From the NCBI GenBank assembly GCA_964619725.1, contig CAZUFC010000168.1, positions 1-16,000 on the forward strand: 16,000 bases of DNA, read 5' to 3'. Below the pieces are notes generated by a model. It saw nothing but the letters and a program-made list of their open reading frames with translations, was not told the DNA's origin and searched no databases. This DNA comes from an uncultured bacterium (lineage in GTDB: Bacteria; CSSED10-310; CAZUFC01). Position 1 is the first letter of the stretch; every line of letters begins with the position of its first letter. Shown piece by piece: positions 502 through 16,000 of the stretch. A program made the translations under genes and the position numbers.

Positions 502-595
502 AAAAAATTGCGTTCCCCCGCGTGCTCCGTGAGGAGGCGCTGCGTTGGAAGGCAGCGCATCTCCTCACTCCGCACGCGGGGGAACGCAATTTTTT
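502..595 (-). other. Long GC-rich hairpin downstream of the FGE/CLec gene (candidate DGR target hairpin and/or bidirectional terminator)
   Basis: 24-bp perfect stem (502-525/572-595), 3x3 internal loop, 8 bp (529-536/561-568), 2-nt bulge, 7 bp (537-543/552-558), 8-nt loop; A/T runs form the base of the stem. Lies ~32 nt past the stop codon at 628-630. Confidence 0.85.
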
Positions 596-627
596 AAAGG
601 GTAAAAGGGTAAAAGTATAAATGGTAA
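596..627 (-). repeat. Degenerate ~8-nt tandem repeat (TTTTACCC-like) between stop codon and hairpin
   Basis: Minus strand reads ttaccatttatacttttacccttttacccttt directly after the TAA. Confidence 0.7.
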
Positions 628-639
628 TTAGAGAAACCT

Positions 640-759
640 CGCAGGGCGGAAGCCGACATCGTCGTAGCCGTCATCGGGCGAGTAGCCGTACCGAGCGGCC
701 GAACGACAGTGCCTCGCAAAGTAGCTCCAGCCGCCGCCGCGGAAAACGCGGTACGAGCC
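640..759 (-). other. Candidate DGR variable region (VR) at the 3' end of the CLec domain
   Basis: GSYRVFRGGGWSYFARHCRSAARYGYSPDDGYDDVGFR fits the scaffold GS-N-RV-N-RGGSW-NNN-AR-N-CRSA-N-R-NNN-xPx-N-x-NNN-xGFR. All 14 N positions are NNY codons. A hairpin follows; no TR was found in the window. Confidence 0.55.
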
Positions 760-1636
760 GGATGTAGGTCCGATAGGATCCTCAACCGGTCCGCTCGGAT
801 AGCTACCCCAATAATCCCAGCACCATTCCAAGACATTACCGTGCATATCATTTAATTCCCATGCGTTGGCCTGTTTCTGAGCGACATCATGCGTCTGGCC
901 TCCAGAATTGTAATAATACCACGCCAAAGGATCAAGATTAGAATCGTTGTAGCAACTGGTGTTATCCTGACCGCTGTTGTAAGCCGTATCTGTTCCCGCC
1001 CGGCAGGAGTATTCCCATTCCGCTTCGGCAGGCAGCCTGTATCCGTTCGCCGACTGATCCCAGTATACCGTTCCTCCGGTTACAGGCGGCGGTTCCGTCG
1101 AAAACCGTCGTATAAGCTTCGTCCGCATAATAACAGGGCGTCAATCCCTCAGCGACGGAAATACGATTGCAGTAGATACAGGCATCATACCAGGTTATGG
1201 TTTCGACAGGTCTGTCGTCGCCAGTGAAGTTAGAAGGGTTAGTCCCGAAAACATCCACCCATTGGGTCTGGGTCACTTCCGTTTTCTGGATGATGAATCC
1301 TCTGGTCAGAGTTACCGTATGAAGAAGTTCATAACTATCGCGGCACATTTCGTCCGTCGGGGAGCCCATCTGAAACGTTCCCGGCGGACAATAAGCGAAA
1401 TTATCCGGCACATGAACGATCTTCAGGTAACTTCCGGTTCTGTAGACAGCCCCGAACGTCAGCCCAGCCGCCAAAGCTTCCGCATTATCCGCATACTCGA
1501 GAATATCGCTCAGTTGCAGTTGCGACGTGGGATTATCCGTTCCAATGCCCACGGAACCCGTTGTTTCGTTATAGTAGACTTCTGCGCCCGCAGGCGTTCC
1601 CTCGTCATTATAAATAAGCTGCATGTTCGATCCGCC

Positions 1637-2194
1637 GGCGGGGCCTTCAGGACCTGTGGGGCCTGCGACTCCGGTGTCGCCCTTAGGACCGGCGATGCCG
1701 GTATCGCCCTCAGGACCTTCCGGACCGAAGGGGCCTGTCGGACCTGTTTCGCCCATTGCGCCCGTATCGCCCTTAACACCGACCGCGCCTGTGGCTCCTA
1801 CCGGACCGGTCGAACCTTCAGGGCCTGCCGGACCGGTGGGACCGGTAACGCCGGTATCGCCCTGATGTCCCGTGACTCCTGTATATCCTGCCGGGCCGGT
1901 CGGACCTGCTGCGCCGGTGTCGCCTTTTGGACCGAACGGACCTGTTTCGCCTGCGGGGCCTGTCGGACCGGTATCTCCTTCAGCGCCTGTCGGACCGGTC
2001 GGGCCAGTGTCGCCGGTCGGACCCATCACGCCCGTTTCGCCTTTCGCTCCCTTCGGACCTGTTTCGCCCATCGGACCCGTCGAACCCGTTATGCCCGTAT
2101 CGCCCTTCGGACCCGTAACGCCCGTATCACCCTTCGGACCGGTCGGACCCGCCGAACCTTCGGCGCCGGTGGCTCCCGCAGGTCCTTCCAGTCC
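1637..2194 (-). repeat. Collagen-like (Gly-X-Y)62 coding repeat
   Basis: Uninterrupted GLE-GPA-GAT...GPE-GPA; rich in GPT/GDT/GET triplets. Confidence 0.95.
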
Positions 2195-2843
2195 CGTCGG
2201 GTCGCCCACCCATTGGCCCGTCTCATTAATTACCGTCTCAGCTTTGCCGTCGTAACCCACTATGCTCAGGCTGCGGGGACTGATGTCCTTATCGTATACA
2301 TCCTCAGCCTGCAGGGCATAACCAGCGCTTGTTATTCTCTGATCGGGCGCCAGAAGCTGGTACCCGTTCACGCCGTCGGAAAACCAGACCCGAAGATATA
2401 CCTCATCCGTTGCAAACGCCGATGACGGTATGGGCTCCATACTGTCAGCATCGCCCAGAATTACGTTATAAAGCCCTTCGGTCACAGTCGTTTCCACTGC
2501 CGTCTCAGGCGGATCGGGCTCTTTTCCGTCGTTGGTCCATAATATCTCACCCGATCCGTTCACTATCGCAAACATGAAATATCCCGGCTCCGGTCCTGTC
2601 TCACCGTAAGGCTCGCCGTCCACTTCCACCTTGCCCTGGTAATTGATCATCCCCGGCGCCGCTTCGATTGACGTTTGAAACACCATCAATGATAAAATGA
2701 AAAATGTCATAACAGATACACATAAAACCGCCGGTCTCCTCATCCTTCTCTCCCTTCGTCGTTTGCTCCTGCAGAGATAAAAATAAAACATCACGGAACA
2801 ATTGAAAAATTACTCGTTGCGAACCCTCATGGGTTACATTTCT

Positions 2844-3205: not shown

Positions 3206-4465
3206 TTAAAAAACCGAAAAATACTGCGCCAGTTTCAAATATATAACGTCGGGTTGTTCGAAAGTGATGCCCGCATATTCTACTCCGCCGTATTCGGTAT
3301 CATTGCCGCCCAAAAACAGGTTCACCCCCATCAGTAAACTCGTATTCTGCCTGACCGACCAGCTTAAACTCGGCCCCAAAAACAAGCTGCCGTCCAGCAG
3401 ATTGCAAACGACTCCTCCGGACAGTATCCACAACGGCGTTAATTCATATTCTCCCATGACCGATAAATAATGTCGGCCGATGTTGTATATTTCTCCTCTC
3501 GTCAGACGATCAGCCTCCTCAATTAAAAAAGCGACATATTCCCCGTCATCATTGACGCCCAGATCGTTAAAATAGTATTCGCCATATAAAAAAAGTCCGT
3601 TCTCCCACCTGTAATTGACCCCGGTCGTTATCCGTATGAAATCCGATTTTTCTTCAGGATCGGTGTAAGTCCCTTCAATCCAGTAACCCGCACCCTCAAT
3701 CTGTCCGGCAATGGAGACCCCGGCAGTTATGTCCGTGTAATTGACTCCGCCCATTACCGCCATGTCGGTCGCCCAGATATTGTTTTTCACCCGGAAAAGA
3801 AGACTCGACTCATCCTCGTCATACTCGTTCTCCTCATTTCTTCCCGGCCGCCACGCTCCGGCAGCCTCTCCCGCAAACCCGAACGGCGCCTCGAACAAAA
3901 CCATGTCCGTTCCCGGTTTCCACTCCGTATCGATGGCCGAAGGACGAAAGGGATTGATCAGGTCTGTGGGGTTCCAGGTGTAACCGCTGCCCCAGGACAG
4001 AGCTGTCCGGCCCGCCGTCAGATCGAAATATTCGTGGCGGTACCGCAAAGCCAGGCGGTCCATCAAGTGCTGTAATCGGTAATTGCCGCCCTCAGACAGG
4101 TCGTCTTCAAGGTCTAAAAAGTTATCGGCTGCAGGAGAGATAAATTCATCATAGGAAAATATTCCCTCACCCGGCGCCGCTTCCGCTTTCAACGTATCTC
4201 CCCACAGGTGACGTATTTCATAAGCATAATCCAGGACGAAATAATCGCCTGCTCGCATATCGCCGTATAACCTCAGCAAAACTTTATTATCGTACATTCT
4301 TTCCATTCCCGTTAGCGAATCATCACTGAACCGGGCCCCTGTCGCTATATCCTTGAACGAACCCGTCATCCCGAAATCGAATTTTGCCGCTTCAACCCCT
4401 GAACCGAAAATCAGAAATGTTAAAAGCGCATACCGCATTGTTTTCCTTTTTAATAAGGACTGCAT
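3206..4465 (-). CDS. Probable outer-membrane beta-barrel protein of the type that accompanies LolA-like/ABC permease operons
   Basis: 419 aa; GGAGG RBS; signal peptide (..GSGVEA). Motif DLTAGRTALSWGSGYTWNPTDLINPF..IDTEWKPGTD; alternating aromatic beta-strands; aromatic C-terminus (YLKLAQYFSVF). Confidence 0.7.
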   Translation of the reverse strand: MQSLLKRKTMRYALLTFLIFGSGVEAAKFDFGMTGSFKDIATGARFSDDSLTGMERMYDNKVLLRLYGDMRAGDYFVLDYAYEIRHLWGDTLKAEAAPGEGIFSYDEFISPAADNFLDLEDDLSEGGNYRLQHLMDRLALRYRHEYFDLTAGRTALSWGSGYTWNPTDLINPFRPSAIDTEWKPGTDMVLFEAPFGFAGEAAGAWRPGRNEENEYDEDESSLLFRVKNNIWATDMAVMGGVNYTDITAGVSIAGQIEGAGYWIEGTYTDPEEKSDFIRITTGVNYRWENGLFLYGEYYFNDLGVNDDGEYVAFLIEEADRLTRGEIYNIGRHYLSVMGEYELTPLWILSGGVVCNLLDGSLFLGPSLSWSVRQNTSLLMGVNLFLGGNDTEYGGVEYAGITFEQPDVIYLKLAQYFSVF

Positions 4466-4593
4466 GAATAATCCTCCTTCTCTGCCGCTATTTTACAGAC
4501 TTGCGAATAATTTTCCACTCGGCGAATCAAAACAGGCATAAACGTCTGCTGAACCGCTATCAGGTTTTTATTACTGATCAATTTTACGGCGCT

Positions 4594-4827
4594 GATCAAA
4601 AATGGCCATGTCAGGGTTACAATTTCTCAGTTTGAATCTTTCATGCTCGTGTTCAGTGCAGCGGTAATCGTAATCGAAACATTGGACTGAGCTGTACAGT
4701 CGTTTGATAGCAAAGCAGGGCAATCATTTGAATCGATCGATCAGGATTACGAGCACGAGCGCCGCTCGGTTGAGCACGAAAGTTCTTTTTGAGTATCGAG
4801 ATCACAATTTGTAACCCCTGTTTGATC
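4594..4827 (-). mobile_element. 234-bp MITE/REP-like element, copy B (inverted relative to copy A)
   Basis: Reverse complement matches 77-310 at about 91% with no gaps; the terminal ~39 and ~45 nt are identical. Confidence 0.75.
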
Positions 4828-4841
4828 AGTCCAGAAAATAT

Positions 4842-7775: not shown

Positions 7776-8486
7776 TTATTCGCCGGCAATCTGTCCGTCC
7801 CTGATTCTGACCAGGCGTTCGGCCTTTTCCATCACCAACTGGTCATGAGTGGAAAAGATAAAGGTTATATTTCTTTCTTCATTCAGGTTTTTCATAAGCT
7901 GCAGGAGCGATTCGCCTGTTTTTGAGTCCAGGTTGGCTGTAGGTTCATCAGCCAGCACCAGCTCCGGCTCGCTGACCACGGCCCTGGCTACCGCCACACG
8001 CTGCTGCTGTCCGCCGCTCATCTCGTTGGGTCTTCGATTGATGTACTCTTCCAGTCCGACCTCTTTCAGTATGTTTTCCGCTTTTTCCCGCCGTTCCGTT
8101 TTGGGAACCCCCTGCAGCAGCATAACGAATTCAACGTTTTCTATCGAGGTGAGGACAGGTATCAGGTTATAAGACTGAAAAACGAAGCCGATATTGTGTA
8201 ATCTTAATTTAGCGAGTTCTGAGCGTTTCATTTCGCATATGTTTTGTCCGGCAATATTAATAGTCCCTTCGGAGACGTTGTCCAGTCCGCCGATCAGATT
8301 CAACAGGGTTGTTTTGCCGGAACCCGACGGACCGGCCAGGGCCATGAATTCCCCTCGTCTGACGATCAGGTCTACATGCTTCAATGCTTCAACTGAAACC
8401 TTACCCGAATTATAAGTTTTGCTCACGTTTTGGACTTCTACTATATTTTTTTCATCTCTGTTGATTTTCTTATCACTTTCAGACAT
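7776..8486 (-). CDS. ABC transporter ATP-binding protein (LolD/MacB-like)
   Basis: Walker A GPSGSGKT, Q-loop IGFVFQ, signature MSGGQQQR, Walker B LVLADEPT, H-loop STHD; overlaps the upstream permease stop. Confidence 0.95.
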   Translation of the reverse strand: MSESDKKINRDEKNIVEVQNVSKTYNSGKVSVEALKHVDLIVRRGEFMALAGPSGSGKTTLLNLIGGLDNVSEGTINIAGQNICEMKRSELAKLRLHNIGFVFQSYNLIPVLTSIENVEFVMLLQGVPKTERREKAENILKEVGLEEYINRRPNEMSGGQQQRVAVARAVVSEPELVLADEPTANLDSKTGESLLQLMKNLNEERNITFIFSTHDQLVMEKAERLVRIRDGQIAGE

Positions 8487-15699: not shown

Positions 15700-15796
15700 A
15701 TGATGAGAGTTCAGTTAAAAGTATGCCTTAATTAAACTGCTTCACAGCGACTGGATGAAACTGCTGGAAAATTGGAATAGGAGAAAACCGGGTACT

Positions 15797-15842
15797 GATC
15801 ATACCGGGGTTACACTTTTTCCAAAACGTTTGACTGGATGAA
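15797..15842 (+). repeat. Short end of a GATC-bounded element related to 4941-4987
   Basis: gatcataccggggttacactttttccaaaacgtttgactggatgaa aligns to the reverse complement of 4941-4987. Confidence 0.65.
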
Positions 15843-15867: not shown

Positions 15868-15938
15868 ATTCCCCCTCACCAAAGCTTAGCAAAGCCCAGG
15901 GTTAAAGGAGCGAAGCGACTGCAACCCTGGGGGGGAAT
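15868..15938. repeat. REP-like imperfect palindrome
   Basis: cccagggtt (15895-15903) / aaccctggg (15923-15931) around gagcgaagcgac; outer attcccc / ggggaat. Confidence 0.6.
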
Positions 15939-16000
15939 GTGAAATATTACAACCCTGAATGGTGATTGAATAATTATGCAGGGCATAATCCTGTATATCG

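Follow-up and report, generated by a model that had tools for sequence, protein, structure and literature searches.

It is already published, as far as the accessible text of the surveys extends, that DGR targets can be remote or non-adjacent, that incomplete loci can be served in trans and that CLec paralogues form families (PMC5758913, PMC7517822, PMC10907252). The survey text available gives the Treponema denticola DGR as the one with the most non-adjacent targets, seven in number (PMC5758913). For Thiohalocapsa PB-PSB1 and cyanobacteria, the accessible sections describe genomes that combine several DGRs with numerous CLec paralogues and have remote targets as well as incomplete loci that are helped in trans (PMC10907252, PMC7517822). 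One of these papers, in the portion available, sets an identity to the template repeat (TR) above 50% as threshold for a remote target (PMC7517822), and large NTPase-type targets with a CLec tail are described for multicellular bacteria in extracts of two reports (PMC10907252, PMC7159879). According to the available extract on BPP-1, the IMH together with a hairpin suffices to target a heterologous gene, and DGR target hairpins have stems of 7-10 bp and 4-nt loops (GRNA) and lie 4-34 bp from the variable region (VR) (PMC3240598).

Here we analyse a candidate remote target in the assembly G000 of an uncultured bacterium. The window, i.e. the whole stretch of DNA analysed, comprises 16,000 bases and is identical with the entire contig C168. 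The assembly holds 9.17 Mb in 344 contigs with 90.9% completeness and 6.5% estimated contamination; its N runs amount to 37 scaffold gaps, each of 10 or 100 bases, and no DGR piece lies near one. The nearest genomes in the reference set belong to the same phylum only, leaving the organism without a close relative there. The original prediction held that a CLec gene near the start of the window is or was diversified in trans by a DGR elsewhere in the genome.

The other genes of the window are ordinary chromosomal ones, encoding an NHL-repeat protein, a MacB/FtsX-type ABC transporter with a LolA-like protein, a GAF histidine kinase and a sigma-54 activator. An ORF on the minus strand at 3206-4465 (419 aa) had no Pfam match at E 0.001. 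The window also contains several dispersed repeats. Copies of a repeat of about 250 nt lie at 66-320 and 4588-4830; it includes a 70-nt direct repeat, positions 1-70 of the window resembling 166-235, and gave 81 BLAST matches on 61 contigs, 19 of which touch a contig end. This repeat probably breaks the assembly, including at the start of C168, 500 nt past the hairpin described below. At the other end of the window, a 56-nt REP-like repeat (15785-15840; 257 matches on 150 contigs) and an 81-nt repeat (15885-15965; 34 matches on 30 contigs) were found.

Results

The putative target is a collagen-plus-CLec gene broken by a frameshift

The target gene extends on the minus strand from about 2743 to 628 and encodes a protein in which a probable signal peptide precedes collagen repeats and an FGE/C-type-lectin domain of the TvpA type. 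The N-terminal frame of the gene (962-2794, minus strand, likely start ATG at 2743) runs into a premature stop past a frameshift, as seen in the ORF list, and comprises a probable signal peptide recognised by eye, an N-domain, collagen Gly-X-Y repeats and the first part of the FGE/CLec domain. Pfam matched this frame to Collagen (E 6.8e-28) and to positions 8-109 of the FGE-sulfatase profile, and the protein collection holds a 593-aa gene call for it that begins MRRPAV. The C-terminal frame (628-1089, minus strand, 153 aa plus stop), part of a second frame that the ORF list gives as open from 1140 to the stop at 628-630, carries the rest of the FGE/CLec domain including the VR and matched FGE-sulfatase (PF03781) with E 1.3e-24 at profile positions 109-255.

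The FGE-sulfatase match is split between the two frames at profile position 109 because of a +1 frameshift at 1091-1092, where the alignment places one extra C on the minus strand relative to the paralogues C141 and C153a. Judged by frames, profile match and alignment, the two frames belong to one collagen-plus-FGE/CLec gene that a +1 frameshift interrupts, a point that the original prediction had overlooked. The frameshift (1091/1092) severs the variable tail from the rest of the protein, and the C168 copy as assembled probably yields no full-length product. A Logan contig of run X1 covered 978-1400 without difference or gap and reproduced the extra C; since X1 may be the sample of origin, this match represents a second assembler and not a second sample. 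Logan contigs without the extra base at this position are diverged paralogue copies. Being frameshifted, the C168 copy may be a decaying target.

With the intact paralogue C153a as query, the closest solved structure to the domain family was T. denticola TvpA (2y3c) at E 5e-45, compared with E 6e-21 for catalytic FGEs, in both cases as a measure of overall similarity. Proteins of the C168 family look secreted. Among the best 120 homologues listed, the collagen-plus-FGE architecture occurred in this genome's own paralogues and in one outside cluster.

The genome has about 30 copies of the FGE-type domain (38 tblastn rows), and seven paralogues are at least 60% identical in protein sequence to the C168 copy (C141, two on C153, C161, two on C179, and C185). 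Over the C-terminal frame, protein identity amounted to 78% for C141, 71% for C153a and 63% for C153b. C153a is an intact gene of 910 aa whose N-terminal part differs from that of C168. The VR of C141 shows 9 third-position changes and a change of Trp to Cys in the conserved GGxW. The tail of C153b looks undiversified, with GAG and AAA codons and 20 third-position differences, and its hairpin is retained. C161, C179a, C179b and C185 have tails of ordinary codons and lack both octamers and hairpin.

In the variable region all differences from C153a fall on codon positions 1 and 2

The codons on which the original prediction was based are the reverse complement of 634-759, in a minus-strand gene with its stop at 628-630, and all 14 codons flagged there are indeed of the NNY type. 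We agree with the caveat attached to them that NNY codons alone are weak evidence; the comparison with a paralogue carries the weight. The VR core (634-759, minus strand) corresponds to the last 42 codons and differs from C153a at 17 sites in 13 codons, which include 11 of the 14 flagged codons and 2 that had not been flagged. In plus-strand coordinates these sites are 744, 726, 725, 723, 720, 711, 696, 695, 690, 689, 687, 671, 669, 666, 665, 663 and 657.

The tail of C153a (C153:3832-3957) and that of C168 share the same scaffold at all 109 remaining sites. Judged against this paralogue, not against a TR of the gene's own, the differences are distributed over codon positions 1, 2 and 3 as 12, 5 and 0, so that every one of the 17 changes in the 126 nt of 759-634 lies at positions 1-2, and four codons carry double changes. 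Over the upstream 110 codons the corresponding distribution is 20, 17 and 40; the upstream coding sequence (1089-760, 330 nt aligned) shows 76 differences (77.0% identity). At the upstream third-position rate of 0.36, the probability of no third-position change in 42 codons is 6e-9.

On the 3' side, the last codon and stop (633-628, 6 nt) contain 2 differences, the spacer (627-596, 32 nt) contains 1 in addition to one more octamer in C153a, and the hairpin (595-502, 94 nt) contains 3, two of which form a compensatory pair. Past the hairpin (501-400, 94 nt aligned) the two contigs are unrelated, with 49 differences and 48% identity. The shared block of 258 nt (502-759) thus has sharp borders and is 97-100% identical to C153a outside the 17 sites. 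Over the upstream 110 codons C168 has 45 differences from C141 and 77 from C153a; C168 is closer to C141 there, yet its VR scaffold is that of C153a and not that of C141. The scaffold, with 0 changes at 109 sites, is also cleaner than its own 3' flank, with 6 in 132 (P of 0 in 109 at the flank rate = 0.007). This comparison suggests that re-templating came after the flanks had diverged and was recent on the scale of the paralogues.

Adenine occupies just 4 and 6 of the 17 variable sites in the two copies, and C168 and C153a are therefore not each other's template. When the segments were aligned with the verified DGRs of this genome, the variable sites fell on TR-adenine columns in 10 of 17 cases for C280 and in 11 of 17 each for C9 and C26 (hypergeometric P = 2e-4, 3e-6 and 4e-5, respectively). 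The VR ends in an invariant GC-rich segment (637-654, minus strand) that is identical in C168 and C153a and has one mismatch in C141. It is IMH-like by position only, and we infer an IMH role for it by analogy with BPP-1. The dominant VR sequence was identical in Logan contigs of the two samples X1 and X2; such contigs drop rare variants and display the dominant VR only.

A conserved spacer and hairpin follow the stop codon

Directly after the stop at 628-630 lies a pyrimidine-rich spacer of 32 nt (596-627, minus strand), inside which the predicted short repeats were found again as two and a half tandem copies of the octamer CTTTTACC at 596-616 (minus strand). The GC-rich hairpin, expected about 32 nt past the stop, begins exactly there. 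It is a long imperfect hairpin of 94 nt (502-595, minus strand) with 39 predicted pairs and an 8-nt loop, preceded by A6 and followed by T8 after the stem.

The RNA of the hairpin folds at -80.3 kcal/mol (z = -10.8), and none of 200 shuffles folded as well. For the 130 nt that follow the stop the folding energy is -75.2 kcal/mol, a value that was reached by none of 2500 sampled ends of ORFs of at least 300 aa in this genome (mean -27.7, sd 8.3). The hairpin family has four copies in the genome (C168, two on C153, C141). Compensatory changes were seen in 3 of the 39 predicted pairs, and several pairs are broken in the C141 copy. A GC-rich stem-loop plus a T run has the form of an intrinsic (rho-independent) terminator. 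The stem at 502-595 is much longer than is usual for such a terminator. Rfam yielded nothing at gathering score over the hairpin, and the sub-threshold matches, to two miRNA-precursor families and Fibro-purF, were rejected as spurious.

The 15-mer CTTTTACCCTTTTAC occurs in six exact copies in the genome, all just 3' of VR-type gene ends: on C168, C153a (two overlapping copies), C280, C324 and C25. A reversed control of the 15-mer gave 3 matches at up to one mismatch. In the C280 family it follows all three targets, at a position that TR homology no longer reaches. A different short repeat and a small hairpin with an 8-bp stem around GAA or GGA come after the C9 and C26 targets. Since the hairpin is also present in C153b, whose tail is not VR-like, its presence alone is no mark of a live target. 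On the evidence of these comparisons the 3' module is real and conserved; target signal, terminator or both are candidate roles for it.

The genome carries complete and broken DGRs

As predicted, the window contains neither an RT nor a TR, none of the 13 RVT_1 matches of the genome being on C168. Elsewhere in the assembly, an adenine-bias scan around the RT matches revealed three complete DGR cassettes with FGE-type targets (C280, C9 and C26), in each of which an Avd-like gene accompanies an RT of 333-342 aa; C280 encodes an HRDC protein in addition. The TR of C280 (364-491) matches three VRs, at C280:2517-2644, C324:546-673 and C25:73977-74105, with 19/21, 17/20 and 19/20 of the mismatches at TR adenines. 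For C9 (TR 105606-105733, VR 106999-107126) this applied to 13/15 mismatches, and a less clean second copy is located near 104309-104429; for C26 (TR 32438-32574) it applied to 18/18 and 19/19 in its two VRs. Judged by eye, the proteins targeted by these verified DGRs are large, of NTPase type, and end in a CLec tail; those of C9 and C26 are served by an RT clade different from that of C280. The Avd model NF033474 scored above its cut-off on C280 (107.6 bits) and on C226 (102 bits). Some of the DGR pieces are on very small contigs, with 4.5 kb for C280 and 2.5 kb for C324.

Several incomplete elements were observed besides. C226:6430-8553 (L133) is a degenerate DGR with a CLec gene end, a VR-like segment at 8133-8242, a long hairpin of its own, an HRDC-like ORF, Avd and an RT truncated near residue 213; no cognate TR for its VR-like segment was found in the assembly. 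At C29:314-640 (L134) a TR-like segment rich in AAC comes after a C-terminal Avd fragment, and no RT follows; at about 900-1200 the same contig has a long array of GATCCCGA-like short repeats. At C8:48913-49030 a CLec gene has an AAC-rich tail resembling an unmutated VR. C-terminal fragments of DGR-like RTs are found at C207:2-478, where the contig start cuts the gene, and at C27:66920-67441, where the fragment starts at the end of a dispersed repeat (C27:66790-66976, 96.8% identical to a stretch of C108) and no TR was detected downstream. The loose DGR parts on C226, C27, C207 and C29 could border the missing TR.

A further RT of 338 aa at C78:1540-2556 (L012) is group-II-like and directly adjoins cas1. 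It was considered as an orphan DGR RT and ruled out on account of this position and of its closest relatives, the RTs of group II introns; RT and cas1 together suggest an RT-assisted CRISPR adaptation module.

Searches for the cognate template repeat

The original prediction had expected short-word BLASTN to retrieve from the genome a non-coding copy differing almost only at adenines. BLASTN-short with the 181-nt tail retrieved no cognate TR from the assembly, and none was found by an assembly-wide search for six invariant motifs with 0-2 mismatches or by an adenine-bias scan that covered 3 kb in each direction from 12 RT-bearing places. With the 17 sites masked, only C168, C153a and C141 passed an ungapped scan, and no TR was among them; the masked scan in 45-nt windows returned nothing elsewhere in the assembly, and an nhmmer profile of 14 VR/TR segments likewise detected no cognate TR there. 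The TRs of C280, C9 and C26 are ruled out as donors, their scaffolds being about 60-70% identical. With 90.9% completeness and 344 contigs, these results do not demonstrate absence of the TR from the organism.

Searches were extended beyond this assembly. Among 40 related genomes, the nearest of which share the phylum only, 6 had weak matches and none had a cognate TR. A pattern scan of metagenomes gave no match, one of genome contigs gave 72 loci, among which L101 alone had extended similarity (62-68%, not cognate), and one of viral sequences gave a single locus without extension. Near the fourteen metagenome relatives of the domain (41-52% identity), tblastn with three DGR RTs as queries detected no RT, and adenine-biased repeats were likewise not found. 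When proteins of 33-105 aa were searched with the 60-aa tail for an ORF derived from a TR, the 2 matches were both ordinary FGE fragments. Logan contigs of public runs included no TR-like contig among the matches listed, which is no evidence of absence.

Spacer and hairpin likenesses in other genomes and viral contigs

A near-identical spacer and a GC-rich hairpin follow three CLec gene ends (L157, L158, L159) in G031, a genome of another phylum. In G011 (L160, another family) spacer and GC-rich hairpin are found after the remnant of a CLec end that comprises the last 12 or so codons. The stop-proximal spacer of both genomes reads TTAC..CTTT..CTTTTNCCCTTTTAC.CTTT, and at these loci conservation is higher in the non-coding flank than in the coding tail. 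No RT was detected in G031, and the differences between its CLec tails are spread over all three codon positions (20/13/14).

Many large viral contigs contain tandem arrays of TTTTTACC-like T-rich units, at 39 loci in all (L162-L200; 42 matches); the arrays are often followed by CTTTAAAA and a small inverted repeat, and many of the contigs come from one sample. No CLec-type gene end was found by these arrays when all 42 matches were screened with a regular expression, which flagged 5 that look spurious, and 7 loci were read. The octamer motif was thus not upheld in viral contigs as a DGR-specific mark. A literature search on the octamer strings found no report of them.

Discussion

A DGR very likely wrote the segment at 634-759, because the pattern of substitutions is the product of DGR retrohoming and to our knowledge no other process gives such differences. 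We regard this segment as a probable DGR variable region of a remote or orphan target, whose cognate TR may be either live and unassembled or recently lost. The proposal of diversification in trans by a DGR elsewhere in the genome agrees with the pattern of 17 sites and with the three DGRs of the genome; a cognate TR was not recovered from the assembly. DGR RTs are present, and variation in the segment is not concentrated at third positions, the opposite of which the original prediction had named as counter-evidence. From the scaffold shared by two genes we infer that the cognate TR exists outside the assembly.

The mechanism proposed is standard DGR retrohoming. The VR would form the C-terminal ligand-binding face of a TvpA-type CLec (FGE-sulfatase) domain on a secreted, collagen-stalked protein. 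A TR located outside this assembly would have been transcribed and then reverse-transcribed by a DGR RT/Avd, random bases being placed opposite the template adenines. The cDNA would have replaced the 126-nt segment in C168 and, independently, its counterpart in the paralogue C153a. After such a process both genes would have the same non-adenine scaffold and randomised adenine-derived sites, i.e. positions 1-2 of NNY codons. The 3' module, made up of the GC-rich VR end, the octamer spacer and the large hairpin, may mark the site as a target.

The principal alternative is a fossil target: a VR written by a DGR whose cognate TR or RT was later lost or disrupted, with the segment no longer changing and the gene in decay. 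This account, which shares the historical part of the explanation given above and differs on the present state only, is possible and we hold it tentatively in reserve. The unsuccessful TR search in the assembly and the frameshift at 1091/1092 are consistent with it, as are the broken DGR pieces of the genome (Avd, truncated RT and a VR without TR on C226, RT fragments on C27 and C207), the drift of the sister copy C141 with its 9 third-position VR changes, Trp to Cys exchange and broken hairpin pairs, and the recovery of the same VR from two samples. Against it stands the identity of the scaffold at 109 of 109 sites between genes otherwise 23% diverged; as this scaffold is cleaner than the adjacent flank, any loss of TR or RT would have been very recent. 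Moreover, a missing TR is unsurprising given 90.9% completeness, 344 contigs, 37 gaps and DGR cassettes on very small contigs.

A more speculative extension, which we consider doubtful, is that the 502-759 block is a portable DGR landing pad that moves between CLec genes with unrelated N-termini and whose spacer may be read by the retrohoming machinery. In favour of this we count that the same CTTTTACCCTTTTAC follows the C280 targets and the C168 family, which needs a different TR, that another short repeat and a canonical small hairpin accompany the C9 and C26 targets, whose RTs belong to another clade, and that a near-identical spacer and hairpin exist in G031 and G011. The viral T-rich arrays without CLec-type gene ends count against it, and so does G031 with neither a detectable RT nor a clean DGR pattern in its tails. 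If the idea were true, one RT/Avd could serve several TR families via a shared target-side code.

An origin without any DGR appears improbable. It would require an ordinary FGE/CLec family whose 3' block was gene-converted and then mutated under positive selection, with the hairpin acting as a bidirectional intrinsic terminator. The sharp-bordered 258-nt block (502-759) could be a conversion tract and the A and T runs flanking the hairpin are terminator-like; similar 3' flanks follow the CLec genes of G031, where no RT was found and tails differ 20/13/14, and the 14 metagenome relatives (41-52% identity) lacked a nearby RT or adenine-biased repeat. However, conversion accounts for the shared scaffold and not for the pattern of differences. 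Seventeen changes with none at the 42 third positions and none at the other 67 first and second positions are unlike ordinary mutation, which would not place 10-11 of 17 on the TR-adenine columns of verified DGRs either. Least credible of all is an assembly artefact, i.e. a C141-like gene body wrongly joined to a C153a-like 3' end, the frameshift being an assembly or sequencing error: coverage is low (Logan word depth about 5-10), C168 ends in dispersed repeats and estimated contamination is 6.5%, but Logan X1 contigs match 594-945 and 978-1400 with 0 differences and no chimera at the module border, an X2 contig matches 537-757, a VR differing from C153a at 17 sites cannot derive from C153a reads, and C168 shares the dispersed repeats of this genome.

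If the DGR-written reading is confirmed, a secreted collectin-like target with a collagen stalk and a variable lectin head is added to the DGR-diversified proteins, in an organism that bears at least three complete DGRs plus several broken ones. Comparison of two VRs with a common scaffold can reveal a DGR target whose TR is missing, a practical approach for fragmented metagenome bins, in which TR/RT cassettes are often not assembled. The octamer-plus-hairpin flank offers a cheap, testable candidate for a target-side signal. Our literature search on DGRs and collagen found no collagen-bearing DGR target in the text sections available, and the supplementary tables of the surveys might list such proteins. 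The collagen-stalked lectin architecture and the conserved octamer-plus-hairpin flank are points of modest interest.

Among the known systems, T. denticola TvpA resembles the C168 protein in its FGE-sulfatase-type CLec fold and in having the variable region at the extreme C terminus. Unlike TvpA, the C168 gene has no cognate TR/RT found for it, its lectin domain sits on a collagen-like stalk (replaced by a different N-domain in C153a) and the copy is frameshifted. Like the Mtd site of BPP-1, the C168 site has a GC-rich invariant VR 3' end and a GC-rich inverted repeat within tens of bases. It differs from BPP-1 in a hairpin of 39 pairs with an 8-nt loop, in the A and T runs that flank it and in the octamer-repeat spacer in between; the short canonical hairpin of the phage type is found in this genome after the C9 and C26 targets. 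With Thiohalocapsa PB-PSB1 and cyanobacteria the genome has in common several DGRs, many CLec paralogues and incomplete loci. A classification of the C168 tail as a remote C280 target by TR identity, following the threshold in the accessible part of PMC7517822, was rejected as mechanistically wrong, since the scaffold bases differ. In the portions of the reports available, remote targets of Thiohalocapsa PB-PSB1 and cyanobacteria are tied to their TR by homology, whereas the C168 target is linked to a DGR through a second VR with the same scaffold.
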